This document shows, in pieces, positions 2,325-25,349 of a stretch of DNA of 31,570 nt. Position 1 is the first letter of the stretch. The number at the start of each line of letters is the position of its first letter. The translations under genes and the position numbers were made by a program. This DNA is from an uncultured Gammaproteobacteria bacterium (GTDB lineage Bacteria > Patescibacteriota > Patescibacteriia > Patescibacteriales > UBA12465). The DNA lies in contig CAYSIJ010000001.1 in the NCBI GenBank assembly GCA_964431155.1, positions 30,130-61,699 on the forward strand, written 5' to 3'. The notes beneath the pieces are model-generated. The model saw only the letters and a list, made by a program, of their open reading frames with translations, was not told the origin of the DNA and ran no database searches.

Positions 2325-3293
2325 TTAAACCTCGCTAATCACATCAAATCCCTTAAAGCTTCCTGTTATAGCTAGTCCGATAACTTTCTTAGCGATTCTT
2401 TTATCCTTGATTTTCTTGGCAATTTCATTCAATGTCGCACCAGAACCTACGGCATCGTCAACCAAGAGAATATTATTAAAATGTCCTGATTCTTCCAGGG
2501 CAAAAGTCTTCTGAGCGTTTTCGATTCTGTCATTAAGCTTGTTCAAGGTCTTTTGCGGGATTATAATATCTGTCTTGATTTTAGTAATTGTTATCTCTTT
2601 AACTGGCAGATTCAGCTTTTTTTTCAGCTCATTCATGAACTGCACTTCTCTTTTTACAGTCGGTTGTACAAATCCAACGCCGTTAATGTTAAATTTTTTT
2701 ATCATCTTTAGGATTGCCGGCCTGACATCATCAATCAATTCTTTCATCAGTCTCCTGCTCTGGCTTTGCTTGGCATATAATAGCATTTGACCAAGCTTCG
2801 TTTTGCCAAATCTCTCAATACTGTAAAAATCAAGATAATATACATCGTCTAGGTATAAATCTTTAAACGTACCTTTCATCTTTTGCATTCCGTCAATAAG
2901 ATCATCTTTCCTAAAACCGGAATATTTTTTCAAAGTAACCAGATATTCTTTAGCAGTTTTTTCAATCGGCAATTTCTGTTTTTCACACCAATAAACAAAC
3001 CCGGCAAATCCTTCCATCTTTTCCCCGCTCGGAGTAATGGTAAAATAATTTTTATCGATTATATTTTTAGTTTCGTTATCAACTTCATGACTAGTTTTTT
3101 CTGACTCCTTTTCTTTGAGGGTATAAAAAACTTTCGGCGGTCTTCCGGTCTTAATTATTTGTTTTCCGGACAGCATGTCTGGCAGATGTTTATATAAAGC
3201 TTGTCTGGAAATATCCAAATATTCAGCTATTTCATTAGCTGTTATTTGACCTTTTTCTTTAATTAGTTTAATTATTTTTTCCCGCGTATCCAT
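2325..3293 (-). CDS. N-terminal winged-HTH fused to a ComF-like phosphoribosyltransferase (PRTase) domain
   Basis: ITANEIAEYLDISRQALYKHL is an HTH. The C-terminus has ILLVDDAVGSGATLNEIAKKI (PRPP-binding loop) and a ComF-like PQKTL...RIENAQKTF. Confidence 0.8.
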   Translation of the reverse strand: MDTREKIIKLIKEKGQITANEIAEYLDISRQALYKHLPDMLSGKQIIKTGRPPKVFYTLKEKESEKTSHEVDNETKNIIDKNYFTITPSGEKMEGFAGFVYWCEKQKLPIEKTAKEYLVTLKKYSGFRKDDLIDGMQKMKGTFKDLYLDDVYYLDFYSIERFGKTKLGQMLLYAKQSQSRRLMKELIDDVRPAILKMIKKFNINGVGFVQPTVKREVQFMNELKKKLNLPVKEITITKIKTDIIIPQKTLNKLNDRIENAQKTFALEESGHFNNILLVDDAVGSGATLNEIAKKIKDKRIAKKVIGLAITGSFKGFDVISEV

Positions 3294-3319
3294 AATTTTT
3301 TAATTACTCTTATTTTAAT

Positions 3320-3361
3320 ATTTTATCAGGTTGACAGTTGACTGTCAACTGTCAACCTGAT
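3320..3361 (-). promoter_or_regulatory. Consensus promoter (TTGACA-17-TAAAAT) embedded in a perfect 37-bp palindrome; putative operator
   Basis: atcaggttgacagttgac-t-gtcaactgtcaacctgat (3325-3361). Minus-strand -35 at 3348-3343, -10 at 3325-3320 preceded by TG. Confidence 0.8.
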
Positions 3362-3376
3362 TACTACAATCATACA

Positions 3377-3402
3377 AAAACGAGGCATTTCAGCCCCGTT
3401 TT
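3377..3402 (-). terminator. Terminator of ftsA-ftsZ
   Basis: Minus-strand RNA aaaacggggc-ugaaau-gccucguuuu followed by U; the sequence resembles the 1800-1828 hairpin. Confidence 0.75.
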
Positions 3403-3431
3403 ACTATTTAAATACTATATTTTAACTAATA

Positions 3432-4703
3432 TTACATCATCCTCTTCCGAATAAAGGCGGGGATACTCAAATCGTCATCATCCTCTTCAACTGGCTCTTC
3501 TTTCTTGGGCTGAGATTTTGCGCCAAATAAGTTTTTCCTAACGAATGCCGGAGTGTCCAAATCTTCTTCCTCCTCTTCTTTCTCGGTGGCTTTAACTGGG
3601 GGAACTAAAGGCTTCAAAGGAGAAGTTTTTGCCGTTGGTAAGACATTCTTATTTTTTTCTGGCCATGTCTTGCCATTTTCTTTTTCAACATTCTCAATAA
3701 AATGATTTGGAGAATAGCTCTTGTGCGCTTCTCCCTGCTTACTATTTCCCCGACCATCAAAACCGGTCGCCACAACTGTAATCTTAACCATGTCTTTCAA
3801 ATCTTCATCAATCACCGCACCAAAAATAATTTTTGCTTCTTCATCAGCGGCAGAGGTGATAACTTTGGCCGCTTCACTAACTTCATTCATGCTCATATCA
3901 ACGCCGCCAGTAATCGTGAAAACAATCCCTCGAGCACCGTCAATTGACATGTCCAGCAAATTGGAATTAATTGCCGCCCGAGCAGCTTCCACAGCTCTAT
4001 TTTCACCGCTAGCCTGCCCAATACCCATTAAAGCTGAGCCAGCGTTTGACATCACTGCTTTAACATCGGCGAAGTCAGCATTAATAACTCCCGGAACAGT
4101 GATAATCTCAGCGATTCCTTGAACGCCTTGGCGTAAAACATCATCAGTGATATTAAAAGCCTCCAAGAGAGTGGTTTTTTTATCAATCACTTGAAGCAAT
4201 TTGTCGTTGGAAACTGTAATAATGGTATCAACTTTGTCGGCCAATTCAGCAAAGGCGCGATCCGCAATATTTTTCCTCTGCCCCCCTTCAAACATAAAAG
4301 GTTTAGTGACCACTGCTACGGTTAAAGCTCCCAATTCACGGGCAATTTCCGCAACAATTGGCGACGCACCAGATCCAGTGCCGCCACCCAAACCACAAGT
4401 AACAAAAACCATGTTGCAACCCTTCAAGGCTTCACGAATTTCATTTTGTGACTCTTCGGCAGCGCCTTTGCCAAGTTCTGGGTTCATCCCAGCTCCCAGG
4501 CCACGAGTCACCGTTTTACCAATGTGAATCTTCTCACTGGCTTTGTTGTAATGAAGAGCTTGGATGTCGGTGTTAATTGCCACAAACTCCACCCCCTTAA
4601 TGCCGGCTTCAATCATTCTATTTATTGCACTTCCGCCACCACCACCAACTCCAACTACCTTAATTTTTGCAAAAGTTTCTACTTCTGGTTTTACTTCAGC
4701 CAT
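3432..4703 (-). CDS. ftsZ: Cell division protein FtsZ
   Basis: IKVVGVGGGG, NTDIQAL, GGGTGSG tubulin signature, NADFADV T7 loop, and C-terminal IPAFIRK peptide. Confidence 0.99.
   Translation of the reverse strand: MAEVKPEVETFAKIKVVGVGGGGGSAINRMIEAGIKGVEFVAINTDIQALHYNKASEKIHIGKTVTRGLGAGMNPELGKGAAEESQNEIREALKGCNMVFVTCGLGGGTGSGASPIVAEIARELGALTVAVVTKPFMFEGGQRKNIADRAFAELADKVDTIITVSNDKLLQVIDKKTTLLEAFNITDDVLRQGVQGIAEIITVPGVINADFADVKAVMSNAGSALMGIGQASGENRAVEAARAAINSNLLDMSIDGARGIVFTITGGVDMSMNEVSEAAKVITSAADEEAKIIFGAVIDEDLKDMVKITVVATGFDGRGNSKQGEAHKSYSPNHFIENVEKENGKTWPEKNKNVLPTAKTSPLKPLVPPVKATEKEEEEEDLDTPAFVRKNLFGAKSQPKKEEPVEEDDDDLSIPAFIRKRMM
3437..3455. repeat. 19-bp direct repeat, copy B (within the ftsZ 3' end)
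   Basis: Identical to 1856-1874; covers the FIRKRM codons. Confidence 0.85.
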
Positions 4704-4721
4704 AGTTATGTAAATTATTTT

Positions 4722-5981
4722 TTATTTTGGCATTATTTTTTGGAGCAAGCCTTTTGCTTTACCAAAAAAATTATCAACATTTTTTTTGAAATTTCCGTTT
4801 CCTGATAATCCAAATTCATTGCGACTTGACCAGACCACCAAGCCAAGAGCGCTTAAAAATTCAGGGCGAGAAACTTTATCAATCACAGTTTTAATATTTC
4901 GAGCAGTACCGACACAAGCCGGTAAGCGAAGTTTTTTCTTGGCACTTTCTACTAAATTTTCCAAATAAGCACCGCCACCGACAAAAACCACCCCTGCCGG
5001 CAACATCCCGGAACGATCAATTTTTTTCAATTCATTATCAATTTTTTCAAAAATTTCTTCAACCCGGGCATCAATAATTTGAGCAATATATTTTCTGGAA
5101 ACCGTTTCAATATCGTCATTTACTTCTTCTTCTCGTACCAAATCACGGATATCAATTTCCTCGTCTTGATTAACATGGTCTTTCAGGGTACTGCCATATT
5201 CGCATTTGATGCGTTCGGCTAAATTGATTGGGCAACGCAAACCAAGGGCAACGTCAGCGGTGATATGTTCTGCACCAATCGGCAAAATAGCGGTGTGAAT
5301 CAAATTTCTCTCTTCATAAACCGCCAAGGAGGTAGTTGAAGAGCCAAGATTTACCAATACCACACCCAATTCTTTTTGTTTGGTGCTAAGCACGGCTTCC
5401 GCAGCGGCCAAAGGAGACAAAACTAAGTCCTCAATTTCCAACCCGGTTCGATGAATTGCTTTGGTGAGATTTTTTAATTGACTACCAAGACCTTGAATAA
5501 TCAAAATTTCAACTTCCAGCCGAATACCGCTCATACCAATCGGGTCCTTGATGTCTTCCTGGCTATCAACGGCGAATTTTATCGGCATGACATGGAGAAT
5601 TTCATAGTTCACTGGCACCGCCATTGCTTGAGCGGCTTCAATTGCTCTTTCAACATCGTGTTCGCTGATTTCTCCGTCGCTTTTGCTGACCGCCACCACC
5701 CCCTTGCTTCGTTCGCATTTGATGTATGGGTCATTGATGGAAATAGAAACTGCGCTAATCGGCACGCCAACTAACCTCTCGGCTTTTTCCAGACAAGCAG
5801 AAATTGAAGAAGTGGTTTCTTCAATACTATTTACCACCCCTCGGTTAACGCCGGAAGTTGGCACAGAAACAGCGCCGATAATTTGCAGTTCTTCTCCGGC
5901 CAAACCATTAATTTTTTGGCCGATAACTAGCCTAATTTCGGTTGAACCGATGTCTAAACCAGCAATAATATTGTCTTTCAT
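4722..5981 (-). CDS. ftsA: Cell division protein FtsA
   Basis: IAGLDIGSTEI, VNLGSSTT, IITADVA-like HITADVALGL, VFVGGGA, and a C-terminal amphipathic helix; directly upstream of ftsZ. Confidence 0.98.
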   Translation of the reverse strand: MKDNIIAGLDIGSTEIRLVIGQKINGLAGEELQIIGAVSVPTSGVNRGVVNSIEETTSSISACLEKAERLVGVPISAVSISINDPYIKCERSKGVVAVSKSDGEISEHDVERAIEAAQAMAVPVNYEILHVMPIKFAVDSQEDIKDPIGMSGIRLEVEILIIQGLGSQLKNLTKAIHRTGLEIEDLVLSPLAAAEAVLSTKQKELGVVLVNLGSSTTSLAVYEERNLIHTAILPIGAEHITADVALGLRCPINLAERIKCEYGSTLKDHVNQDEEIDIRDLVREEEVNDDIETVSRKYIAQIIDARVEEIFEKIDNELKKIDRSGMLPAGVVFVGGGAYLENLVESAKKKLRLPACVGTARNIKTVIDKVSRPEFLSALGLVVWSSRNEFGLSGNGNFKKNVDNFFGKAKGLLQKIMPK

Positions 5982-6864: not shown

Positions 6865-8988
6865 TTATTTTTTTAAAATATTTTCTAACATCACAATAAT
6901 TGCCCTGGCTCTTTCTGGCTCTCCTAATTCATTGAAACAAAAAGCAATCCGGCGCAGAGCTTCCAAATTTTTTTCATTATTAACAAAGGCTAAGCCATAA
7001 TAATTAGAAGCATTGCGGAAATTTTTTTCAATTTCATGAGTTTGTCCAATAGTAAAAAATATCTCCCCTTTTATTCTTAGGAGTTCTTGTTTGTGAATTT
7101 CATTTAAACGGCGATCTTGCTGATCGGGCAACAAAGACAAAGCCCGACCAAAAAGCGCTCGTGATTCAGAAAATTTTCCCATTCTAGCTTGAACGAGGCC
7201 AGAAATAAAGTAGGCCTTTGGCCATAGCGGCACCGATTTCAAAATGGTATTACTCAAAAAATCAGCTTCCTGGAAATTGCCGTTAAAAACTTTCAGCTCC
7301 ATTAAACTTTCGGTATCAAAAATTGAGTTGGAATTAAAAAGTTTTTCGTCTTGCTGAATAATTTTTTTTATCTTCTCGGTAACCACCGAGTCGGAATAAA
7401 TATTCTGGATAGCGGTCATCTTCACAAGCATCATCTTCCGATAATTTGTATCGGCAACCCCTAATTTAATAATTTTTTCTCGCACCGAAAAAGCACTAGA
7501 ATATTCTTGAATATTCCAGGCTTGGTTAAAATAATAAAAATAATAATCAGCGATAACAACCTTGAAAGAATAAACCAGAGAGCTGGCGGAAATTAATAAA
7601 GCGAAAAAAACGGCCAGATATTTTTTTTGATTAAACTTCAACTTTCTCTCAATCGGCGATTCAGAAAGAGCCAAAGAGATTCCAAATAATAAGAAGAAAA
7701 ATATTGCCGTGGTCGCCACTGAAAAGCTGAACAACAAAGAAAACAGATAGGATAGCAGGGAAAAACCAAGGGCAAAACAAGCCGGATAATTTTTGAGCTT
7801 CTTGGCGGCGGAGATTAATATTTTAAAAATTGAGAAATACCAAAAAACCCAAACGGCCAAGCCAAGCAAGCCAAAGCTAAGAGTCAGATCCAAAAACAAA
7901 TTATGAGCCCGATCGGGAAGCAAAAAAGCCGACTCAAAAACCGCCCAATCTTTTTGATATTCCAGAACTAATCTTTCCGGCTGACTTTCCGCGCCGTAAC
8001 CAAGCCAGGGACTTTTTTTGATTTGAGAGATTGCCGCTTGATAAACTTGCGCCCGATAAGCACTGCTTCCCTCTGAAAAATCAGTAATTGTTTGGAAACG
8101 TTCACTCTTCAATAAACCAAAAATTATTAAAGCTAAAACCAAAATAACCCCAGAAAGACTAATTATTTTTTTTCTTTTAATAATTTTGTTTTGGAAAATA
8201 AAAATCCCAGAAAAAACTAATAAAGTGGCGGCAAACGAGAGCCAAGCGCCACGACTACCGGAAAAAACCAAAGCTAGAAGTTGCAGGAAACCAGCGGAAA
8301 CAAAAAAAAGACGAAAGATATTTTTTTTCGCCAAAAAAGCCGACAAAAATGTCAGGGGAATCGTCAATAATAAAAAAGAGGCCAAGAAATTAGGCTGAAA
8401 AAGAGTGGCGGAAGCCCGATGAGTGAGATTCGCCGGCTCTTGCCAAATTAAAAAATCAAAACCAAAAAATTGGCAAATTGCATAAATTGAAACCAGGAAA
8501 GCTGACGAAACAGCCACAGTCAAAATCGTTCTCAATTTTTTTTGTAAATTTTCAAAACCATCGCTAGACAAGTAAACACTCACCAAAAAAGCAAAAATAA
8601 AATAGCAAAACCAATTCACCAAGCCGTCATTGCGGGAATAAGAACCAAAAAAAGATTGATAATGATTTTGGCTCCAAAGAATAGACAGGGCAAGGAACAA
8701 AATTAGGACTATTGAAGAAAAATAAATTTTTGGTTTATTCAAAAAACCGGGAAAATAAATTTTTTCCTTTTTTATGGCAAGCGCTAACACTTTGCACAAA
8801 AAAAAGATTAAGGAGAGAAACAGCCAAACCTGAAACCAAAATAACTTATTTAAATCAAAAAGATTGTTGGTTTTGAAAAACAATGACAAATACAAAGGAG
8901 TGCCAAAAATCAGGACTAAAATTGAAAAATCAAAAAGAAACGAAAATATTTTCGGCCAGTTTTTTAATTTAAAACCTTCTAAATTCAT
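6865..8988 (-). CDS. O-antigen ligase / PglL-like oligosaccharyltransferase with C-terminal TPR region
   Basis: About 12 TM helices; QPNFLASFL, SGSRGAWL, PWLGYG, DRAHNLFLD (Wzy_C His motif); helical TPR-like C-terminus; stop codon 3 bp before pilD. Confidence 0.88.
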   Translation of the reverse strand: MNLEGFKLKNWPKIFSFLFDFSILVLIFGTPLYLSLFFKTNNLFDLNKLFWFQVWLFLSLIFFLCKVLALAIKKEKIYFPGFLNKPKIYFSSIVLILFLALSILWSQNHYQSFFGSYSRNDGLVNWFCYFIFAFLVSVYLSSDGFENLQKKLRTILTVAVSSAFLVSIYAICQFFGFDFLIWQEPANLTHRASATLFQPNFLASFLLLTIPLTFLSAFLAKKNIFRLFFVSAGFLQLLALVFSGSRGAWLSFAATLLVFSGIFIFQNKIIKRKKIISLSGVILVLALIIFGLLKSERFQTITDFSEGSSAYRAQVYQAAISQIKKSPWLGYGAESQPERLVLEYQKDWAVFESAFLLPDRAHNLFLDLTLSFGLLGLAVWVFWYFSIFKILISAAKKLKNYPACFALGFSLLSYLFSLLFSFSVATTAIFFFLLFGISLALSESPIERKLKFNQKKYLAVFFALLISASSLVYSFKVVIADYYFYYFNQAWNIQEYSSAFSVREKIIKLGVADTNYRKMMLVKMTAIQNIYSDSVVTEKIKKIIQQDEKLFNSNSIFDTESLMELKVFNGNFQEADFLSNTILKSVPLWPKAYFISGLVQARMGKFSESRALFGRALSLLPDQQDRRLNEIHKQELLRIKGEIFFTIGQTHEIEKNFRNASNYYGLAFVNNEKNLEALRRIAFCFNELGEPERARAIIVMLENILKK

Positions 8989-8995
8989 ATATTTG

Positions 8996-9004
8996 ATTAT
9001 AGCA
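8996..9004 (-). promoter_or_regulatory. Extended -10 promoter 7 nt upstream of the ligase ATG (near-leaderless)
   Basis: TGcTATAAT-caaatat-ATG. Confidence 0.6.
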
Positions 9005-9021
9005 TAAAAGGGCTGGGGAAA

Positions 9022-9053
9022 TAAAAAACCGTTAACTTTTTAAGGTTAACGGT
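9022..9053 (-). terminator. Terminator downstream of the GH57-like gene
   Basis: accgttaac/gttaacggt stem followed by a U6 tract on the minus strand. Confidence 0.75.
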
Positions 9054-9073
9054 CGCATGTTTATGATTAACTG

Positions 9074-10261
9074 TTAGATATCTAACTGTTTTGTGACGGC
9101 GATTAAGCGTTCCCAGTAAATACCGCCTTTCTGTTTTTTGCTTAATTCTCTCCAGAGTTTTAGCTCTTTTGAACCTTCTTCTTCCTTTATTCTCGCCAAG
9201 AAAACTTTTCTAGCCAAATAACCAGCATCAATTATTTCTTTATTACCCGTAATTTGCACGGTTCCAGGATTTCCCTCAGAATCTACTAATGGCAAATTTA
9301 TTGGCTTTCTTGAAAAAATAGATTTTTGGAACACCGCTGCAGCAAGGTCTGCACCAGCCGCAAAAGCAAGCAATAGATGATTTTCTTCACTCATTTCTTG
9401 TTTCGCATAATGTTTCAACTCAGAGAAATAATCAAACATCGCCTCAATCGAAGTCCACTTTGACAAACTGCGGTGAGGAGTATCAATTATTTCTTGTGCT
9501 TCGGAAATTAAAGATTGAGAAATTTTGGCGAAATCTAAAAAACGATCTTCTAAGCCGTTCTCTTTGATTTTTGCAATTAATCTTTCCCAAAATATTTTTC
9601 CAAGTTTGGAGCCAACATATGGCGCTTCCAAATCAAAGGGAACAAGAATAACTTCGTCCACTTCTGCAATCGCTTTTACTAAAAGATCCAAATTGCTAAT
9701 TCCGGCATCATTTGTTTTGTCTGGAAACCTTTGAGCTAAAAACATGAGATCAAGAATTGGCTTAAATAACTTTTCAGTCATCACAAACCCAAATCTTCCA
9801 TTAACTTTCACAACTGGCGGCAAAGCACCAACTTCTTCGGCATTCCAAGAAACTTCTTGATTCAAATAACCGTCTGAATAATAGTGTGTCTGACTATCCA
9901 ACAACCAAAAATTGCGATTCGGTTTGGTTGGTGAGCAAAATTCTGGATAAAAAGAAACCGTTTGGTTTTTTATCCCATTTTCTTCCTGCCATTTCAAATG
10001 TTCGTCCGAAGTTAATGCGGGCAATACATGAGAAAATAATCCTCCTGAAAATTGCAAATTTTGATACTCCTGATATTTTCCCAACCAAGGATACATCAAA
10101 AAATCTAATTGATGGCAATTGATTGTCAGGTTTAAACCTGATTCTGCCAACACTCCCAAGCCTAATTCTTCGGCGTGGATTTTTTCAAAACTTTGCGGCA
10201 ACACATTGCCGTGAAATGAGTTGGTTGACGCAACCAACACGATTCCTCTTTCTTTTCCCAT
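9074..10261 (-). CDS. Cytoplasmic protein, probable divergent glycoside hydrolase family 57
   Basis: Ordered GH57-like segments: FHGN, SHVLPAL, FYPE (nucleophile-like), PFDLE (acid/base-like), RSLSKW. No signal peptide. Confidence 0.5.
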   Translation of the reverse strand: MGKERGIVLVASTNSFHGNVLPQSFEKIHAEELGLGVLAESGLNLTINCHQLDFLMYPWLGKYQEYQNLQFSGGLFSHVLPALTSDEHLKWQEENGIKNQTVSFYPEFCSPTKPNRNFWLLDSQTHYYSDGYLNQEVSWNAEEVGALPPVVKVNGRFGFVMTEKLFKPILDLMFLAQRFPDKTNDAGISNLDLLVKAIAEVDEVILVPFDLEAPYVGSKLGKIFWERLIAKIKENGLEDRFLDFAKISQSLISEAQEIIDTPHRSLSKWTSIEAMFDYFSELKHYAKQEMSEENHLLLAFAAGADLAAAVFQKSIFSRKPINLPLVDSEGNPGTVQITGNKEIIDAGYLARKVFLARIKEEEGSKELKLWRELSKKQKGGIYWERLIAVTKQLDI

Positions 10262-16062: not shown

Positions 16063-19000
16063 TTAAAAATTATCACCGGAAATTTGGGTTGATAAATGAT
16101 AGATGAGATTACCAAAAATTTTATACTCTTCGGGCTTTAAAGCGGCGCCATTGTTATGCCCCAATTGAATTGAAGCGACGCGATTGCAAACACTTGCCCA
16201 GGAATAAGTTGGCGAAGTCGGAATATGGAAAATATTTGTTAATAAGGAGCTAGCTGCCGAACAAGCCGAACCGCCGCATTGCGGGCCACAAGCACTATTA
16301 GCCGCTTTCAATAAATAAGATGGCTGCCAAGTATTGACCGTAATGTTACCAGTAGAAAGCGAGAATATCTCTCTGGAATTATTGGCGTGAACAATCATGG
16401 TGGCATTTACTGGAGAAAAAGTATTGGGAACTGTCCCCGAATAGTCGCTGAAGATTGTTCCATTTAGAGTTTTCCCGCCAAAAACCACCATCCCACCATT
16501 TTTAATAAAGTTTTCTACTAAAACACGGGCCAAGGGATCAGGATAACTCAAATTATTTCCCATTCCGAAAACAATGAGGTTGTATTTTTCCAAAATATTT
16601 CCTACTGGTAAATATGAAGTTGGACTGGAATTAAACACATTCATCGACACTGTATCAACAGAATAATCTACCTGACCGGAAGTATCGTTATCAACAATAG
16701 CGACATTGTCCCGGAAAGAAGAATCGGTTGGATTATTTCCCAGAGTATTTAAAATGGCCTTAACGGAAATTGTATTTGCGGCTCCAGAACTATTTCCAGC
16801 ATAAACCTGAAGAATTTTTAATTGGCGAGCAATTTTACAACGATTATTGCAGTATTCTCCGAGATAGGCCTGGACTGAATATGGGTCGCCGGGATCGCAT
16901 TGTTCTCCCTGATTATTCTGGACTATTCCATCACCGCAATATGAACAATCCGTATGACAATATTGATTTGTATTAAAACCAGGATCATAAACTTCGTGAT
17001 CATCAGTGGTAAAAGTGCTATCTATGGAACCACAAATTCCATCGCCGCAATAGCCGCCGGTCGCTCGGCAATAATTGTTAGAAGTAATTGGATTTGGAGT
17101 AGTAGAACCAACGCCGGTGGTGCAAGAATACTGGCGAGAAGCCGAACTATCAGCCACATTGAGAGCGACTCCGCCGACACCGTCACACTCTTCCATTCCG
17201 TCATTATAAATTCCCCCTCTTTTTTCTTGATTCGGCGCCTGTTTAATTCCATCGCCGCAATAGCTATTAATCTTCAAAACGAAACTCTTGGTGGCAGAAG
17301 CACCGTATTCATTGGTCGCAGTAATGGTGATAGGAAATTCGCTTTGAGGCGCTGGGGTTGACGTACCCGTTGAAGTGTTTCTAGTTTCATCATATTCATC
17401 AAACCTGCTAGCATAATTAGCCTCTTCTTCAGAAGTAACGACTGAGAGATTGCCGCTCGTGTTATTTGTATCAAGTGCGGGGTTAGTTCTCTGAAAACAG
17501 ACTTGTTGTTTGGTTGCTTGCTGGTTAGCGGCTGGTGCGCCCAGAGATTCGGCGAAAGCCTCTTTGATTTGCAAAACATTCTTCGCCCAAGTAACAACTC
17601 TAAGGACTGGAGATAAAAGAGCGGAAGGAAGAATATTATTTTCCTCCTGCATTTCTTGTTGTTGGCTTTCTAATTGTGATTCTGCTTTCAAGATAACACT
17701 TTTCAAAACATCATCATATTTCTTAAAAAATGATTCTTGAAGAGTGGCTGCATTTTCCTGGTCATTTTCTGAAACAAATTTTTGATAGGATTGAGTGCTA
17801 CAAGGAAAATTACGGTTGATTGTCGGTGGAGTAGGAGGAACACCTAAGGCATTGCCGCTAATTCTCACCGTTCCAACCTTGCTGGGGTCAGTAGAGGTTG
17901 ATAAATTAGTTCCCGTCAAACCGGCAACTGAATAAGTAATATCGTGATCTTTGCTGTTTAAAAGTTTCACTACACAATCATAGGCCCCGAACTTTCGGAC
18001 ATTTTCTTCACATTGATAATCAAAAACTGGCTTATCTTGTTTTAAATTAATTATAAAATCTTTCACCGAGGAACCGCCTGATGAGTTGTTGAGAGTAACC
18101 CGATAATTTAAGACTTTATTTGAACCAGCAGGAACATCTATTCTTCCACTATTTTGAAAAATAGTGACCTTGAATCTGCCCCTTTCAATCTTTTCAATTT
18201 TTGACTCCAAGCCACTTGGTAAAATGCCGGATGAACCACCACTAAGAGACGGCCGTGTATAGCTTAAAGTGTAATTTGGAGTGCCGGAATCGGAAACTGA
18301 ATCATCATTCAAATAGAATGAATAACTTAATCTATTATTGTTCAAAATAAAATCGGAGTTTTCTGCCTCAATTTTTGGCTTTGACTTGCTAATGGTAATT
18401 TTAAAAACTTTGGTTTGCTGTCCGAGCCGATTGTCAGAAACCTTGATGCTAATTTCTGCCGCGCCAACAGTCAAAGCCTTTCTTGAATAAACTTTTTTCT
18501 GATTTGGATTATTAGTGTCAACCAAAGTGACGCCGCCATCAAAAATGCTTGCGCCCGATATCACCGAAAGCTCCCAGGTCAATGGGTTGCCGCTTGGATT
18601 TGCTACCTTGATAAAACCGCTAAACTCCTGACCGAGCTCGCCTTGAAGATTCGCCGCTTCAAAAACTGGGTTAACCGGAGAGGTTGGGGCATCAATTTTC
18701 ACACTACAAGCCCCCTGACTCAAAAGCCTGTCAACAGTATTATAATTATTCACCGAATCAGCACTACCGTGAGTCTCCATTGAGGCACACAAACTATATT
18801 TGGCGCCACTATTTTCTGATTGATAAGCCATGACTAAACTATTATTCGGAAACTCTAGTGGATTAGTTTTAGCGGCAAAAGTGCTTAGGTTTTTATTCCA
18901 ACAGGTGACAGCATCAAAACCTGGGCATTGGCCTAGTTTGTTAACTGGATCAACTAATGATTTATCAAGACCTAATTGAGCACCAAAAGTACTCTGCCAG

Positions 19001-19719
19001 CTTGGCCAAGTAGAAATAGTTAGATGAGGGAGATAACTACCTGATGGTAAATCCGGAAAACGACCGTTTTTTTCTTGATAATTTTTTAAGGATTCTTTTA
19101 TCTCAGCCAAAACTGACAAACGTTTTACATCGCGGGTAATTTTGGCTTTTAAGCTATCGCAAAATCCCTTGCCAAGACAATCGCCATCAACCAAACAAGT
19201 GGAGGTTGCCGCCACCGTAATCGCACACTTTCCAGGAGCCGCTAAATTATTATTGAATTTCCAATTAGCAATAATCTGGCCGAGCGCATCGGTGGTGCCA
19301 GGCTTTGAATCTTGGTTATAAGAGATTAGATAAATGTTGGTGTGAATGATATTTCCTAAAACATTGGTGGCATTAACATAAACTGTCCGGCCATCGCGGA
19401 TTGCTTCATAGCCATCAACAATCAAAAATTGCGGCGATCCGGAAAAACCTTTTTCGCGATACCAGCGTTCAATTCCATAATGCTCATCGTTTGGCAGAAT
19501 TCTAATTGCCACCGCATCCAAACTTTCACCTGATACGGCCTGAAAATGATCACTAGCATCAACGGCGGAATCTATCTCAGCTGCAGTCTGGTCGGCAGCC
19601 TGGCAAGGATTATTTACCAAGAAGAAACAACTGACAACCAACAAAAATAACCCAGCTGACAACAAAAAAGGCTGGTAATTTTTACCTCTATTAAACCGCT
19701 GGAACATTATTGGTTTCAT
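16063..19719 (-). CDS. 1218-aa secreted Cys-rich surface protein: pilin-like helix, Ig-like repeats, CGDG (DUF4215/Myxococcus Cys-rich-like) repeats, C-terminal class-I-GATase-like fold
   Basis: Signal peptide ending CQA; RDVKRLSVLAEIKESLKNYQEKNGRFP; three YCGDGI repeats; LKILQVY...YNLIVFG...FIKNGGMVVFG. Confidence 0.7.
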   Translation of the reverse strand: MKPIMFQRFNRGKNYQPFLLSAGLFLLVVSCFFLVNNPCQAADQTAAEIDSAVDASDHFQAVSGESLDAVAIRILPNDEHYGIERWYREKGFSGSPQFLIVDGYEAIRDGRTVYVNATNVLGNIIHTNIYLISYNQDSKPGTTDALGQIIANWKFNNNLAAPGKCAITVAATSTCLVDGDCLGKGFCDSLKAKITRDVKRLSVLAEIKESLKNYQEKNGRFPDLPSGSYLPHLTISTWPSWQSTFGAQLGLDKSLVDPVNKLGQCPGFDAVTCWNKNLSTFAAKTNPLEFPNNSLVMAYQSENSGAKYSLCASMETHGSADSVNNYNTVDRLLSQGACSVKIDAPTSPVNPVFEAANLQGELGQEFSGFIKVANPSGNPLTWELSVISGASIFDGGVTLVDTNNPNQKKVYSRKALTVGAAEISIKVSDNRLGQQTKVFKITISKSKPKIEAENSDFILNNNRLSYSFYLNDDSVSDSGTPNYTLSYTRPSLSGGSSGILPSGLESKIEKIERGRFKVTIFQNSGRIDVPAGSNKVLNYRVTLNNSSGGSSVKDFIINLKQDKPVFDYQCEENVRKFGAYDCVVKLLNSKDHDITYSVAGLTGTNLSTSTDPSKVGTVRISGNALGVPPTPPTINRNFPCSTQSYQKFVSENDQENAATLQESFFKKYDDVLKSVILKAESQLESQQQEMQEENNILPSALLSPVLRVVTWAKNVLQIKEAFAESLGAPAANQQATKQQVCFQRTNPALDTNNTSGNLSVVTSEEEANYASRFDEYDETRNTSTGTSTPAPQSEFPITITATNEYGASATKSFVLKINSYCGDGIKQAPNQEKRGGIYNDGMEECDGVGGVALNVADSSASRQYSCTTGVGSTTPNPITSNNYCRATGGYCGDGICGSIDSTFTTDDHEVYDPGFNTNQYCHTDCSYCGDGIVQNNQGEQCDPGDPYSVQAYLGEYCNNRCKIARQLKILQVYAGNSSGAANTISVKAILNTLGNNPTDSSFRDNVAIVDNDTSGQVDYSVDTVSMNVFNSSPTSYLPVGNILEKYNLIVFGMGNNLSYPDPLARVLVENFIKNGGMVVFGGKTLNGTIFSDYSGTVPNTFSPVNATMIVHANNSREIFSLSTGNITVNTWQPSYLLKAANSACGPQCGGSACSAASSLLTNIFHIPTSPTYSWASVCNRVASIQLGHNNGAALKPEEYKIFGNLIYHLSTQISGDNF

Positions 19720-19747
19720 ATTTTCAAGAAAAAATTAAGTTAAGATA

Positions 19748-19756
19748 ATTATACCA
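19748..19756 (-). promoter_or_regulatory. Internal extended -10 promoter upstream of the 1218-aa gene
   Basis: TGgTATAAT immediately after the stop codon of the 1862-aa gene. Confidence 0.55.
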
Positions 19757-19760
19757 CAAA

Positions 19761-22700
19761 TTATTTATTACTGAAAAAATAATATTCTTTTAAAATATCC
19801 CAGATGCATAAACCGCCGGAACAATTGGCGTCCGAAGAACAAGACTGAGCATTGTTATTACTACAAACCTTACTTGGACTTTTTGGAATAGCACTCTCGG
19901 AAATTTCCGGCAAATCATCACTTGTACCTGGCTTCCCCGCATCGCGACAATAATAAAAATCGTAATTAAAAGGATTGTTCGCGAAATTATTTTTATCACG
20001 CCACGGTGCCCAAGTGCCATCGGATTTTATTCTTGGCCAAGGATTCGCGCAAATAAAGACAAACAGCTCAGAACTGGATTTTTCTCCATTACCGCCGAAA
20101 TATTGATTACCGGTGGACATTTCCACGGTGGAATAAAGCAAAGTCTTGCCATCGTTAATTTTGTCAGCCGCAGTCGCAATAATTTTATTAGCCATTAATG
20201 AAACAGTAGTTGTAGAAATTAAGGAAGGATTTTCTGATTTGAATACCCAGGTCCAATTATAGCCAGTAACAGGATTTAATAGTTGATCATCAATACTATA
20301 AGCATTGGCTTCAAAAACTTTGTCACGATCACGCCTGGAATCAAACGAGGCATTTCCAGGGGTGTCATCAGCTGAATCATTGGCGGCCGTGGAAAACAAG
20401 TATTGATTAGGGACTAAGGTTGTATAATCAATTTCACAAATATCAGCTCTGGTGGTAAAAGTACTGACAAAAGCCTTGTATAGGTTATTGTTTATTTTTG
20501 CTTTAATTGCTCCTTGGTAAAACCCGCTATCTTGAGGCTGGCTAGCATATTTTTTGATATTCTGATCTATAACTTCGCCTATCTCTTCCCTTCTGATATT
20601 TAAATCACCTAGCTCCATAGAAAAATCTTGGACGTCAAGTTCCAGGCTAGACTTTAACATTTTAGAGCGAATTTCTCTTATCTTTTTCTTTAATTCTTCT
20701 AGCTCTTCAATTTGTGTTCCTAAATCCTTCCAGTTTGCGCCATTGACAGCTTTGGCAATCATCAAACCTGTATTATTTCTCCGTTTTTCTGCTTCATCCA
20801 ACAGATCATTAGTTGCTAAGATTTCGTTAAAATTTTTATTGATTTCGGCATCAGAAACTTTTTTCTGATAATTTTTAATCTGATTCTCGTACTCTTTTAA
20901 GTCACTATGGAGAACCTGAAAATCTGCTGTTGAAAAACCGGAATCATCCACAACACTCATCCCAACACCATCGCCACTCAAAACACCGTCCGCCGGAGAA
21001 TTTTCCTGGTTATTTCCCCTGACAAAAATTAAATATTTTTGACCACTCTTGAGCACAGCTTTTGGCTTAATAAGCGCAACTGTGGTCGTGGCAAAGTTTT
21101 TCACCCGATCCACAGCTTCAACATTGATGGGGACTTGGCAATAAGTATGATTAGCGGTATTGTCAGCCAAGGCTTTGTCTTTCTTGAAAATATTAAAAAA
21201 TGAAATAATTATTTTTTCAACACCCTGATAGGCTTTGACAAAAATATTTTCTTTTAAATTATCGGCTGCCAAAGGGGTGCTAGTCGGACACTTGAAGCCG
21301 GCCACATGCTCTTCCAAAAGTTTTACATTATTACTATTAAGACTGGTGCCAATCATGATGCGATCAAAATTGATTTGAAGAGCAGCGTTTCGGCAAACTC
21401 CAGTGCTGTCAGCAGCCGGGGAAACGCCGCTGATTGTTGGCTTGGGATAGCAACAAGAATCCACACCACAACCACTTAGACCAACCCCGCCGGGATTACA
21501 TTCACCATCATTAGAGCAACCACAACAAAGACCGCGTGAAGCACCACTGCAGTCTCCTTTGTTGGAAAGGCAGGATAATTTTGAATTGATTGCTTTGCAA
21601 GCGGTATCCGTTTTTGGATTACAACAGCAAACCCCACATTCACCGCCTGCTGAAGGCGCTGCGGAAGTTATTGTTCCGCCAGTGGAAGTTAGGCAAGAAA
21701 GATTTGACGTGGCGCCAAAAACCCCGGAACAAATTGAAGTATCGCATGTATAATTATTAGTGGTTTTCCCGGCAGTGCCACAACTTAGACCCAGGCCAGT
21801 GTTGCCGCCCGATGGTTTACAATTAGCTTCGCAAGCTGTGATGGAAGAATAGGTGCCATTTCTTCCAGGAGTACTGGAAGCACATTTATTATTTTCTGTA
21901 ATTGCATTATTTGGATCAGAGCAATTGTAATAAGCGCAATATCCTGGATCACTAGGAATTAAATTTCCAACACCACCGCGACAGACTGGCCCACCAGTCG
22001 CCTTGGCATCCAAACAGCAAACGGAAGAATGCGCCATGCATTCATCAGTGTCCAAAGTAGCACAATCGACGCAAGCACCGGTCGGGAAAGCCCCAGAAGT
22101 CGCACAGAACTGACCATTGTGACCTGAACAGTTGCAGGCAGCATCTCTGGAGTCAGTGTCGGCTCCGGCCGCAAAGCAACCAGAACATTTGCCAAATCCC
22201 GAATTGTCAGTTGGATTGGTATCAGAACCGCAAGTTCCACCACAAGTTAATGGCGCACAGCAATCTTGGTTACCATTGCTAATTTGGCAACAACATTCGC
22301 AAGAAGGTGCTTCGTCAATAACACACTCCCCCGAGGAATTACAAGTCTCTCCGCCTTTACATTGCAAATCAATTTTACATTTTCCCTCTAAGCATTTTTC
22401 TGTATTCTCACACAATGAACAATTATTACTAGTTTTTAGATCTACAGTGGAGGCACCTTTAGCGCAAAGGCCGCCATTTATTTTTATCCAACCATTGATA
22501 CAAGTGGTGTTTGAGCTATAAACTAGACGTTGGCGATTTTCATATTCTGGTAAAACTTTACAGAAAGAGCCTATTTTTTCTGTGTCGCTACAAATTTTTT
22601 CTGGATTTTTAATGCAACTGCCGTTAACGACAGAATAACCACTCGGACAACAAGGTCCTTTTGGCGCCGCGACTACTGTTGAACCGGAAGAACATTTACC

Positions 22701-25349
22701 AGGCACATTTGGACAAGTGCTACTAGTTTGGCAGGAGCCAACTTCTTTGGAAACACCGAGGCAGCTATCAAAAGTGCTAGGTGGAGGAGTAGTGGGATTT
22801 GTGATATCTATTGTCCCGAGTTTAGTGCTAAAAGCCCATTCAAAAACTGAATTTTTAACATCACCCACACAATCAGCAAGATCGCTCACACACTGGCCTT
22901 TCAAAGAAGTGGTTACTGGACAACAAAATTTTCCCGACGAGCAATCGGAATTTTTTCCGCAAGCACCAACTTGAAAATTAACTGGGTTACTATCCTCTAA
23001 TCTTACTAACCCGGAAACCGCGGCGGCAGGAACAAGCACTTCTGCTTTATTAGTTTTATTGCTAATTGAAATTGTAGAAGCAGCAGCAATTGAATTAAAA
23101 TAAACCTTCACGGCAGAACCACTTGATCCAAAATTTTCTCCAAAAAGTGTTGTCGTGGAATTTGCCGGACCGCGGCTAGGATCAATTTTACAAATTCCTG
23201 GTTTCAATTTTTCATTAGAATCAAAATAAAAAGATAGGTTGTTTGAGGAAGAATGCATTTCCCAGGAATCAGTTTTGATCATTACATCGCTTTTTTGCGG
23301 ATTAATTCCGTCAGGAGCTTTAACAAGAATCTGCTTATCCGACCAGAGATCGGCCGCACATTCGCTTGGAAAAGTATAAACCGCTTCTTTACTACCGAAA
23401 AACACTTTGCCATTTCCACGGTTATCACCAAAATTACTGCCGCTGATTGTAACATATTGTCCTACTGGACCTCTATCGGGAGAAATCGCCGAAATATTTG
23501 GAGCCGCGGGAAGATCGTTCAGCTTTTCAAAAAATAAAAAATTACTTTTTGGTTTTCCATTGCTGACAAAAATACTATTATTACCAACTGCCAAAACAGG
23601 AACGGCGGCACTAGCCTTGGTGTCACTAGCAAATTTTCCCTGACCATTAAGATTTTTTTGATAATCACCAAAAAATACCGAACCATTGCCAAAGTTATTT
23701 CCAAAAAGAGAAATAACTTCGTTGGTCTGCGCAGCGCTTGGCGACAACCTGCAAAGACCAGGACGAGAAATCCCATTCTTTAAAAAATCTTTAATTTTTG
23801 GTCCATTGTCGTCATCTGTCGTTTCTATTTCATTGAACCGCGACCGGATTTCAATTTTGCCGTTTTGGACATCATCAGGAACGACGACAATAATTTGATT
23901 AGCACTGAAACTTGAACATTGGGAATATATTTCCGAGGCAGTTTTAACTGTTACTCCGCCGATAGTAATTGAGCGTCCAGCGGTTTCATCAACAATTTTC
24001 AGATCATCAATAAACAAGGAAGTCCCGTTGCCAGTCGGCCCACCAACCAAAACAAAACGCATTTTTGGGCTCCCAATTTTTGGCGAATTACCAAGTGAAA
24101 AAAATATTGTTCTTTGGTTGCTATATTGTCCTGGGATAATCTCAGTGATTTTTTTGTCATCAAAATAAATTTCTAAACGATTAGTTAGTTCCCCTTCAAA
24201 AGTAATTTGCCCACCGTACTGACGACCATCTTGAAAACCAACTTTTTCCAGATCATAAAAAACTTCGGCATTGGCATCAGTGCCATCAACATTCCCTGGT
24301 TTCTGCCAGAAAAGTAACGACATAGACTCTTTAATCGGCGTTTTTGCAAAAGAAATTTTAGCCGCATCGCCGGCTTTCAAATCGCCAAAATTGGGACTGC
24401 CAATGCTTCCGCCCTCAGGATAGCTATCAAATTTTTCCTCAAAAATTTCCTTACCTGATGGCTTATTAAAATTTTTACCAAGAATCGTTAAAAGATTTCC
24501 TGGCTTGCCATTTGGCGTAATGGTGTTACAAGTGGAACTTGGGCAGTCAGCATTTGTGTCACAAGGCCTGTTATAATTATTTTCACAAAAACCGCCCGCC
24601 GGGCTAACACTCAAAATAGTAATTGGCCCCTCACAAACACAAGAACCAGTATTACAGGTTAAACCATCAGCGCAATTATTTCCATTAACATCGCAGGAGC
24701 CGTCTTCTTTAAAACCGCAAGAATCACCCGATTGGCTTTTGTCTTCACATAAGCAATTATTATTACAAATCTTATCCGGTGAACCGCAAAGATTGTCGTT
24801 TGGTGTGCAAGAACCCAAATTAGAACCACCATTGCAGCTTATTGGGGTAGACGTTGAGTTTGTACAATCATAACCTGAACAAGTCGGATTACCACCGTCG
24901 CAGACAATATGCCCACCGCAGAAACAAGGGGTGCCGGCCACGCAAGCTCCTCCCGGATAAATGGAATTACCACCATTATTGCCATCGCCTAATAACCTAT
25001 TAATTACAAAATAAGCGATTCCCCAGGCGGATAAAATAATAATTAAACCAATTAAACCAGATCTTAGAATTTTTTTTGCTTTGGTGATTTGTTCTTCACT
25101 ACCATTACTCTTCATCCAAACAAACCCTCCCCAAAGAATAATACTAACGGCAATAATTCCCAAAAACATCAATGAGAGGTTGATAATTCGGACCGCCATA
25201 TCACGCGGGTCACTCGCTGATAAGTTTATGTCGGCTCCTACTTGGTCCACCCCAGTATCAACCGTGGTTGCAGCCAAAGCCAAACGAGCGCCAAAAAGCA
25301 CAGTAAAACAAAAAATCGCGCTTAATAAAATTTTACTAGATTTTTTCAT
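19761..25349 (-). CDS. 1862-aa surface protein: N-terminal TrbC/VirB2-like (T4SS-type) pilin, Cys-rich modules, IPT/TIG repeats, SbsA-like Ig domain
   Basis: MAVRIINLSLMFLGIIAVSIILWGGFVWMKSNGSEEQITKAKKILRSGLIGLIIILSAWGI (pilin hairpin); repeated (I/L)SPxxG..TLxGxNFG TIG starts; ISGVSPAADSTGVCRNAALQINFD; dozens of Cys. Confidence 0.8.
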   Translation of the reverse strand: MKKSSKILLSAIFCFTVLFGARLALAATTVDTGVDQVGADINLSASDPRDMAVRIINLSLMFLGIIAVSIILWGGFVWMKSNGSEEQITKAKKILRSGLIGLIIILSAWGIAYFVINRLLGDGNNGGNSIYPGGACVAGTPCFCGGHIVCDGGNPTCSGYDCTNSTSTPISCNGGSNLGSCTPNDNLCGSPDKICNNNCLCEDKSQSGDSCGFKEDGSCDVNGNNCADGLTCNTGSCVCEGPITILSVSPAGGFCENNYNRPCDTNADCPSSTCNTITPNGKPGNLLTILGKNFNKPSGKEIFEEKFDSYPEGGSIGSPNFGDLKAGDAAKISFAKTPIKESMSLLFWQKPGNVDGTDANAEVFYDLEKVGFQDGRQYGGQITFEGELTNRLEIYFDDKKITEIIPGQYSNQRTIFFSLGNSPKIGSPKMRFVLVGGPTGNGTSLFIDDLKIVDETAGRSITIGGVTVKTASEIYSQCSSFSANQIIVVVPDDVQNGKIEIRSRFNEIETTDDDNGPKIKDFLKNGISRPGLCRLSPSAAQTNEVISLFGNNFGNGSVFFGDYQKNLNGQGKFASDTKASAAVPVLAVGNNSIFVSNGKPKSNFLFFEKLNDLPAAPNISAISPDRGPVGQYVTISGSNFGDNRGNGKVFFGSKEAVYTFPSECAADLWSDKQILVKAPDGINPQKSDVMIKTDSWEMHSSSNNLSFYFDSNEKLKPGICKIDPSRGPANSTTTLFGENFGSSGSAVKVYFNSIAAASTISISNKTNKAEVLVPAAAVSGLVRLEDSNPVNFQVGACGKNSDCSSGKFCCPVTTSLKGQCVSDLADCVGDVKNSVFEWAFSTKLGTIDITNPTTPPPSTFDSCLGVSKEVGSCQTSSTCPNVPGKCSSGSTVVAAPKGPCCPSGYSVVNGSCIKNPEKICSDTEKIGSFCKVLPEYENRQRLVYSSNTTCINGWIKINGGLCAKGASTVDLKTSNNCSLCENTEKCLEGKCKIDLQCKGGETCNSSGECVIDEAPSCECCCQISNGNQDCCAPLTCGGTCGSDTNPTDNSGFGKCSGCFAAGADTDSRDAACNCSGHNGQFCATSGAFPTGACVDCATLDTDECMAHSSVCCLDAKATGGPVCRGGVGNLIPSDPGYCAYYNCSDPNNAITENNKCASSTPGRNGTYSSITACEANCKPSGGNTGLGLSCGTAGKTTNNYTCDTSICSGVFGATSNLSCLTSTGGTITSAAPSAGGECGVCCCNPKTDTACKAINSKLSCLSNKGDCSGASRGLCCGCSNDGECNPGGVGLSGCGVDSCCYPKPTISGVSPAADSTGVCRNAALQINFDRIMIGTSLNSNNVKLLEEHVAGFKCPTSTPLAADNLKENIFVKAYQGVEKIIISFFNIFKKDKALADNTANHTYCQVPINVEAVDRVKNFATTTVALIKPKAVLKSGQKYLIFVRGNNQENSPADGVLSGDGVGMSVVDDSGFSTADFQVLHSDLKEYENQIKNYQKKVSDAEINKNFNEILATNDLLDEAEKRRNNTGLMIAKAVNGANWKDLGTQIEELEELKKKIREIRSKMLKSSLELDVQDFSMELGDLNIRREEIGEVIDQNIKKYASQPQDSGFYQGAIKAKINNNLYKAFVSTFTTRADICEIDYTTLVPNQYLFSTAANDSADDTPGNASFDSRRDRDKVFEANAYSIDDQLLNPVTGYNWTWVFKSENPSLISTTTVSLMANKIIATAADKINDGKTLLYSTVEMSTGNQYFGGNGEKSSSELFVFICANPWPRIKSDGTWAPWRDKNNFANNPFNYDFYYCRDAGKPGTSDDLPEISESAIPKSPSKVCSNNNAQSCSSDANCSGGLCIWDILKEYYFFSNK

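Follow-up and report, generated by a model that had tools for sequence, protein, structure and literature searches.

The perfect 37-bp palindrome in the window (the whole 31.6-kb stretch of DNA analysed here) very probably represents an operator by which the protein of the adjacent gene would repress its own σ70-type promoter. A sequence-only reading of this DNA had suggested an autorepression operator of four half-sites, with occlusion of the −35 hexamer. Conservation of the element across 81 loci, its covariation with the recognition helix of the encoded protein and natural swaps of HTH/operator pairs lend support to this predicted function.

An inverted-repeat search identified two arms of 18 nt each (3325–3342, ATCAGGTTGACAGTTGAC; 3344–3361, GTCAACTGTCAACCTGAT) with 100% complementarity around a single central nucleotide, T3343. 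On the plus strand, positions 3330–3356 read GTTGAC-A-GTTGAC-T-GTCAAC-T-GTCAAC, so that the search and the sequence together confirmed the 18-bp perfect arms, 1-nt centre and GTTGAC heptads described earlier. Read in the direction of the gene (minus strand), the element comprises four 7-bp units in the orientation → → ← ← (GTTGACA GTTGACA GTCAACT GTCAAC). The span 3325–3361 is the sole perfect inverted repeat of such size in the window. The core pattern matched four times in the window against a mean of 0.76 in shuffled sequences, and at least four matches were found in none of 100 shuffles.

The promoter scan of the minus strand detected TTGACA (3348→3343), a 17-nt spacer and TAAAAT (3325→3320), with 11 of 12 matches and a TG before the −10 hexamer, whose end lies 26 nt from the ATG (3293) of the gene at 2325–3293(−). 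This agrees with the claim that a TTGACA-17-TG-n-TAAAAT promoter is embedded in the palindrome 26 nt before the ATG. The spacer between −35 and −10 is filled by H3 and H4 (Table 1), and the transcription start site is expected near 3313. No clear Shine-Dalgarno sequence was found in the 26-nt gap before the ATG of the window regulator. The hairpin at 3372–3407, which was not called by the terminator scan of the minus strand, isolates the regulator promoter from upstream (ftsZ) transcription.

Table 1. Coordinates of the putative operator, its promoter and the adjacent gene in the window
Feature	Position	Strand	Basis and remarks
Perfect 37-bp palindrome	3325..3361	none	Entire putative operator with symmetric flanks; 18-nt arms, centre 3343
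Heptad H1 GTTGACA	3350..3356 (3356→3350)	−	Distal direct repeat; contains the outer TTGACA
Heptad H2 GTTGACA	3343..3349 (3349→3343)	−	Holds the −35 hexamer TTGACA (3348→3343)
Heptad H3 GTCAACT	3336..3342 (3342→3336)	−	Inverted half-site; perfect in the window; GTAAACT, GTTAACT or GTCAACT in relatives
Half-site H4 GTCAAC	3330..3335 (3335→3330)	−	Inverted
Extended −10	3320..3328	−	TG (3328–3327), A, TAAAAT (3325→3320); promoter scan 11/12 plus TG
Terminator-like hairpin followed by T-run	3372..3407	−	Inverted-repeat search and sequence; behind ftsZ (3432–4703); conserved in ortholog L001
Gene for 322-aa protein (wHTH, alpha/beta middle domain, ComF- and PsyrT-like PRTase)	2325..3293	−	ORF translation, Pfam, NCBIfam, AlphaFold2, Foldseek, PADLOC
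Recognition helix ISRQALYKHL, codons 28–37	3183..3212	−	R30, Q31 and Y34 covary with operator type
PRPP-loop motif LLVDDAVGSGATL, codons 276–288	2430..2468	−	Invariant or nearly so across the family

The window is a stretch of ordinary CPR/Patescibacteria chromosome carrying nrdR, ftsZ, ftsA, a prepilin peptidase gene, secDF, clpP, a Rel/SpoT homolog (28146–29615; HD, RelA_SpoT and TGS domains) and hisS. It also contains a 22-bp palindrome (AACTGTTAGATATCTAACTGTT, 9069–9090) at the 3′ end of a 395-aa ORF and another palindrome (GTTAACTTTTTAAGGTTAAC, 9031–9050) that forms a terminator-like hairpin immediately upstream of the next promoter. The regions 16063–25349 and 25368–27968 contain two very large ORFs (1218 aa, without a Pfam match, and 1862 aa) and, beside them, a protein of 866 aa in which T4SS-pilin-like and Big_5 domains were recognised.

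By the terms of the sequence-only reading, a lack of similar palindromes in homologs would have counted against it; the opposite was found. In a comparison of the 120 nt upstream of the gene in 80 loci from GTDB species representatives (52%–95% identity) and the window (81 loci in total), a 27-bp four-heptad element was present in essentially all loci. A strict rule, which required a 9-2-9 palindrome with at least 8/9 matches and a flanking heptad repeat with at least 6/7 matches within 130 nt upstream, recovered 69 of the 81 (mean in shuffled sequences, 0.025 loci), and the remaining, degenerate elements were recognised by eye. In general, the element reads GTTnnnA GTTnnnA GTwwACT nnnAAC, or the mirror image of this pattern. 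Heptads were of the GTTTAC (26 loci), GTTGAC (25), GTTCCT (17) or GTTCAT (4) type, with GTATAC, GTGTAC, GTGGAC and GTTGAT being rarer.

The position of the element was quantised, and it overlapped or abutted the core promoter (−35/−10 or transcription start site) in all 81 loci. In one group of placements (start at −43 to −46, −55/−56 or −63/−64), it covers the −35 hexamer and the spacer, with the −10 hexamer directly after it; in the other (start at −29, −30 or −36), TTGACA-17-TATAAT lies just upstream and the element spans the transcription start site up to the ATG. A location upstream of the −35 hexamer, as expected of an activator site, was observed in none of the 81 loci. Thus, the element has the geometry of repression. 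Furthermore, every heptad of the GAC type includes the σ70 −35 consensus, and a repressor and σ region 4 would therefore compete for one hexamer.

In 41 of the 81 family genes, a good −10 hexamer ended 5–8 nt (mode, 6) ahead of the start codon, compared with 3% of random ATGs. Such proximity implies leaderless mRNAs for these genes. The same layout was observed in the window at an O-antigen-ligase-like gene (start, 8988; region 8988–9010), which is preceded by TGcTATAAT and 7 nt before its ATG.

A metagenomic search with the 20-bp core GTTGACAGTNNACTGTCAAC returned 113 exact matches, 58 of which were situated 17–117 nt upstream of a family member; all except one of these 58 had the extra heptad. 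Among the 56 gene-adjacent GAC-type sites in standard orientation, H3 was GTAAACT in 17, GTCAACT (fully symmetric, as in the window) in 17, GTTAACT in 14 and GTTGACT in 4. H1 and H2 were identical (7/7) in 57 of the 58 gene-adjacent sites and in most GAC-type loci, and the extra direct-repeat heptad covaried with the half-sites of the palindrome. Judging by these sites, the conserved feature is the set of four half-site-like heptads rather than perfection of the palindrome, and the perfect form in the window is a common variant.

The sequence of the heptads followed that of the protein. When mutual information with operator type was calculated for the 322 protein columns, residues 34, 31 and 30 ranked first, second and third, and they remained at the top after sequences with > 80% identity were collapsed (z = 14–18), followed by residues 33, 19 and 36, likewise in the HTH. 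The top three columns are all located inside the recognition helix (I28–L37), and the residues found with the main operator types are given in Table 2. Over all pairs of loci, residues 30/31/34 predicted a shared operator type with an AUC of 0.87, compared with 0.55 for identity over residues 70–322; shared ancestry can inflate such covariation, since operator type and lineage are correlated, although three mosaic pairs argue against this explanation.

Table 2. Recognition-helix residues associated with each operator type
Operator	Residue 30	Residue 31	Residue 34
GTTGAC	R	Q	Y/F
GTTTAC	R	M/Q	S/H/F
GTTCCT	D/S/T/P	R	R
GTTCAT	E	R	F

These three independent pairs (L019/L053, L048/L065 and L022/L071) are 93%–94% identical over residues 70–322 and have different operator types, TTTAC or TTGAC in one member versus TTCCT in the other, with corresponding helices RQxxH/F versus xRxxR. 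Identity over residues 3–47 is only 53%, 27% and 49%, respectively. At the DNA level, identity is 85%–95% from approximately nt 130 to the stop codon, and the sequences cannot be aligned across the 5′ part that encodes the HTH, the operator or either flank. The conserved gene body amid unalignable flanks indicates that it occurs in unrelated genomic contexts, and the collapse of identity at the adjoining HTH segment and operator indicates that both were replaced together, as one module. In sequence terms, a protein and the site that it reads would be expected to be replaced together in this way. The L015/L052 pair is also mosaic; the gene is located at approximately 3001 in these two loci and in the three pairs above.

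An alternative to the operator interpretation is that the element acts as a DNA structure, with extrusion of a cruciform or hairpin hiding the −35 hexamer or pausing replication or transcription. The perfect 18-nt arms in the window are compatible with this view, as is the predicted free energy of the palindrome folded as single-stranded DNA (−18.6 kcal/mol, z = −8.4). In addition, the 95%-identical ortholog L001 (2938–2974) differs from the window within the 37 bp by only three substitutions (A→G in the flank, T→C at its mirror position and T→C in H3), each of which keeps or perfects the symmetry. These symmetric changes could reflect either selection for extended symmetric contacts or a template-switch ‘palindrome correction’. 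However, symmetry is not conserved among relatives, given that H3 was GTAAACT or GTTAACT in 31 of the 56 GAC-type sites described above. The conserved, covarying extra heptad is a direct repeat, which is useless to a hairpin; protein recognition explains its covariation, whereas hairpin formation does not. Moreover, half-site sequence follows protein residues, and most relatives have short arms and a central spacer of 1–2 nt, from which extrusion is unlikely unless the DNA is supercoiled. The cruciform, which the sequence-only reading had offered as an alternative, is consequently not favoured and appears improbable.

It is also very improbable that the heptads are bound by another trans-acting factor, such as an omega-type ribbon-helix-helix (RHH) protein or a global regulator. 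Contiguous direct and inverted 7-bp heptads are a known signature of omega/RHH operators (PMC9499535), and orphan elements without an adjoining family gene exist. Nevertheless, the element was linked to the gene family in 81 of 81 loci amid unrelated neighbourhoods, it covaried and was co-replaced with the adjacent wHTH, and no conserved small RHH gene was found nearby in these 81 loci. A function in RNA, as a 5′-UTR hairpin governing translation or stability, is more doubtful still. In the Moranbacteria-like arrangement, the −10 hexamer precedes the element and the ATG follows it, so that the element would be transcribed, but in the window and most GAC-type loci it is upstream of the −10 hexamer with the −35 hexamer inside, thus outside the mRNA, which excludes an RNA element for the window type; half of the family is apparently leaderless, and no Rfam match was obtained. 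Finally, although chimeric assembly can create perfect palindromes, an assembly or recombination artefact, as the sequence-only reading had allowed for, is excluded because the element recurs in dozens of independently assembled species and in 113 contigs from metagenomes, and the expectation from shuffled sequences leaves a negligible role for chance.

The other 55 of the 113 core matches did not adjoin a family gene and consisted of 26 bare palindromes and 29 sites with the extra heptad. The latter included clear gene remnants and orphans without a common downstream gene. An intact operator and promoter were followed by a 17-codon stump (MKKNTAEKII...) in L093 (133–230), by a gene with an in-frame internal deletion in L088 (approximately 2780–2991), which fuses its N-terminus directly with the PRPP loop, and by C-terminal fragments of the family gene in L129 (approximately 12697). 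Such intact operators before decayed genes indicate gene turnover. Approximately a dozen full elements were present in CPR-like contigs without an adjoining intact family gene; these orphans could be relics, as those in L088 and L093 clearly are, or targets.

The bare palindromes were mostly found in higher-GC contigs with cyanobacteria-like proteins, and some were located within longer heptad arrays. No family gene was found in L082 (approximately 5813–5870), L116, L131, L117 (approximately 9640–9690), L124, L171/L172, L186 or L152 (two copies). The GC content of these contigs was 0.39–0.46, except for L124 (0.62), and they contained longer GTTGACN heptad arrays converging on a central GTTAAC as well as dispersed copies of the palindrome. 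Cyanobacteria-like proteins were also encoded in the gene-less contigs L099, L109, L155 and L176. These arrays may be STRR3-type (CAACAGT) repeats, for which a literature search was empty. The heptad arrays in this group of contigs are unrelated to the CPR regulator.

In the loci fetched, there was no sign of targets beyond the gene itself. No second operator was found in the 31.6-kb window, and 497 kb of homolog loci contained just one extra composite element, an orphan (GTTTACAGTTGACAGTAAACTGTAAAC) at 5574–5600 of L021 that is followed by a terminator only. This locus also has two tandem paralogs (2971–3963 and 4306–5283) whose operators differ, one consisting of GTTCAT heptads and the other being a separate palindrome, GGTTAATATTAACC, that lies between TTGACA and TAATAT. 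In 1.2 Mb of fetched loci, a second site was absent from every regulator-bearing locus except L080. In L080, approximately 170 bp of promoter and operator are duplicated (1665–1836 and 2814–2984) around an inserted IS200/RAYT-like transposase gene (ORF 1883–2512), and the upstream promoter copy is cut within its last heptad. No conserved neighbour or operon partner was found in the 81 loci, where ftsZ was upstream in five and nrdR was downstream in two. Within the scope of the fetched loci, as distinct from complete genomes, these sequences support only self-regulation.

The encoded protein has an N-terminal HTH_11/wHTH domain (Pfam, residues 2–60, E = 2.9e-8) and a sub-threshold PRTase domain (Pfam, residues 217–305). 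NCBIfam returned weak matches to TIGR00201 comF and GntX over residues 223–305 (28.1 bits against a cut-off of 233.55 and 22.8 against 304, respectively), leaving the curated ComF cut-off unreached, and a marginal match to the orotate-PRTase-like model NF002620 (E = 0.0025). An AlphaFold2 model based on a 60-sequence alignment (mean pLDDT, 87.9) predicted a wHTH at residues 1–60 (alpha1-beta1-alpha2-alpha3-wing), a short low-confidence linker, an alpha/beta middle domain at 73–200 and a PRTase domain at 205–311. The best PDB match in Foldseek was Helicobacter pylori ComF (7p0h_A, E = 4.1e-5, 166 aligned columns), followed by HPRTs and PyrR, and the match to PurR (1p4a) was weak (rank 30, rmsd 16.7). 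A PDB sequence search yielded generic wHTH matches only. The best profile match was the PADLOC PsyrT model PDLC03928, in which residues 4–311 aligned to positions 367–683 of 689 (E = 1.1e-17). By these comparisons, the protein is a stand-alone, helicase-less version of the C-terminal module of PsyrT/RqlH. Assignments to the PurR, GfcR and BirA-type families (including the label ‘biotin operon repressor/HGPRT’ in some sources) were rejected on the basis of the Pfam, NCBIfam and Foldseek results.

Across 60 sequences, D280, A281, G283, S284, G285 and T287 of the PRPP loop were invariant and D279 nearly so; in the wing, G50, P53, V55 and Y57 were invariant and K48, P52, K54 and F56 nearly so. A word-indexed search retrieved 3,836 protein clusters (90% identity) from sources such as Parcubacteria, Moranbacteria and Falkowbacteria, among which the most specific source name was ‘HTH domain-containing protein’. 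An exhaustive search of 50%-identity clusters found 305 representatives at E ≤ 1e-30, nearly all of approximately 325 aa and full length. Three proteins of 363–413 aa (P0146, P0161 and P0215) match only from approximately residue 70 onwards and have a longer, different N-terminal region in place of the wHTH. Family members were not found in IMG/VR viral contigs, and a literature search, including CPR papers mentioning ComFC, did not retrieve a description of the family, the heptad sequence or the operator.

Under the operator interpretation, an oligomer of the protein would occupy the element through its N-terminal winged-helix domains and exclude RNA polymerase, and this promoter occlusion would hold the protein at a low, self-limited level. 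The element would probably be bound by two dimers. The variable heptad positions 4–6 would be read by helix residues 30, 31 and 34 (R, Q and Y/F for GAC), and the wing (K48-G50-P52-P53-K54-V55-F56-Y57), which is invariant or nearly so, presumably recognises the constant GT..A frame. Here, we infer physical binding, repression rather than activation, and the oligomeric state. Given what is reported for PurR and ShosT, we tentatively suggest that PRPP or a nucleotide, as a ligand of the PRTase-like domain, might modulate the regulator.

The protein could serve as a sensor-regulator or as a dose-limited, possibly toxic enzyme; the predicted autorepression suggests that its dose needs strict limits. 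A more speculative scenario, which we regard as rather unlikely, is that the gene forms a self-contained unit by itself, is shuffled horizontally and encodes a helicase-less relative of the genotoxic PsyrT/RqlH/ShosT-type PRTases that is rendered harmless through very tight autorepression. Its HTH and operator would then form a ‘specificity cassette’ that was replaced repeatedly, as in phage immunity regions, so that co-resident or incoming copies avoid cross-repression. If this scenario were true, the operator would act as a safety catch on a protein that is dosage-toxic or defence-like and widespread in CPR, and the family would supply a natural wHTH recognition code relating residues 30/31/34 to heptad positions 4–6.

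To our knowledge, there is almost no experimental knowledge of transcription factors in CPR/Patescibacteria. One point against the operator interpretation is that half-sites spaced by 7 bp are uncommon among dimeric wHTH proteins and typical of RHH proteins such as omega. From the sequence comparisons, three aspects look new: a wHTH that would read contiguous 7-bp units arranged → → ← ←, discrete operator/recognition-helix specificities that appear to be exchanged as a cassette between near-identical proteins, and the coupling of a ComFC/PsyrT-like PRTase module to such a putative switch throughout CPR. The predicted regulator–operator pair is concrete and cheaply testable, as its consensus-like promoter should work in Escherichia coli, the binding site is predicted down to the base, and specificity residues are predicted for GTTGAC (R30, Q31 and Y/F34), GTTCCT (x, R and R) and GTTTAC (R, M/Q and S/H). 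The natural HTH/operator swaps amount to swap experiments done by nature. These results also tie an uncharacterised family to the ComFC/PsyrT/ShosT group of PRTase-fold proteins, and its mutually orthogonal heptad operators could become parts for synthetic biology.

Among known systems, the window protein matches the wHTH, middle and PRTase parts of the PsyrT model. PsyrT/RqlH combines a RecQ-like helicase with a PRTase domain at the C-terminus; this domain, which has the PRPP pocket, is the genotoxic part, and its genotoxicity is seen only when the DprA-like partner is missing (PMC4670107); the toxicity of the related ShosT requires PRPP binding (PMC12961424). Unlike PsyrT/RqlH, the window protein lacks the RecQ-like helicase: it has 322 aa, no helicase Pfam match and an alignment starting at profile position 367. 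The DprA-like PsyrA/RqlI is likewise absent, as no conserved neighbour was found in the 81 loci and no DprA Pfam match in the scanned window ORFs. In addition, its wHTH appears to be a sequence-specific autoregulator, a role not reported for RqlH.

H. pylori ComF (7p0h) is the closest solved structure to the PRTase part of the window protein, and, judged against the ComF consensus, both appear to share the motifs Q..L....R..N...F and DDxxxxGAT. Unlike ComF, the window protein has a wHTH at its N-terminus instead of the zinc-finger region; it is far below the family cut-off, and no link to com genes was seen. The protein also resembles PurR in having an N-terminal winged helix and a PRTase-like domain with a PRPP-binding loop, and PurR likewise autoregulates. 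In Bacillus subtilis PurR, a winged helix is combined with a PRTase-like sensor domain for PRPP and ppGpp (PMC8789054). However, the two are not homologous at the family level, with no PuR_N match in Pfam and only a weak match to 1p4a, and PurBox operators are unrelated to the window heptads.

As with the putative operator in the window, the operators of omega (pSM19035) and other heptad-reading RHH repressors are series of adjoining 7-bp units, direct and inverted, that overlap promoters (PMC9499535), although the omega reader is an RHH dimer, one per heptad, whereas the covarying reader in the window is a wHTH. GfcR, a haloarchaeal regulator with an HTH and a PyrE-like PRTase fold (PMC10838023), shares the fusion of an HTH to a PRTase-fold domain, but it is an activator of sugar catabolism, and its lineage and sites differ from those of the window protein. 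The system belongs to none of PurR, ComF, GfcR or the full PsyrT system, and it would work like any promoter-occluding autorepressor.
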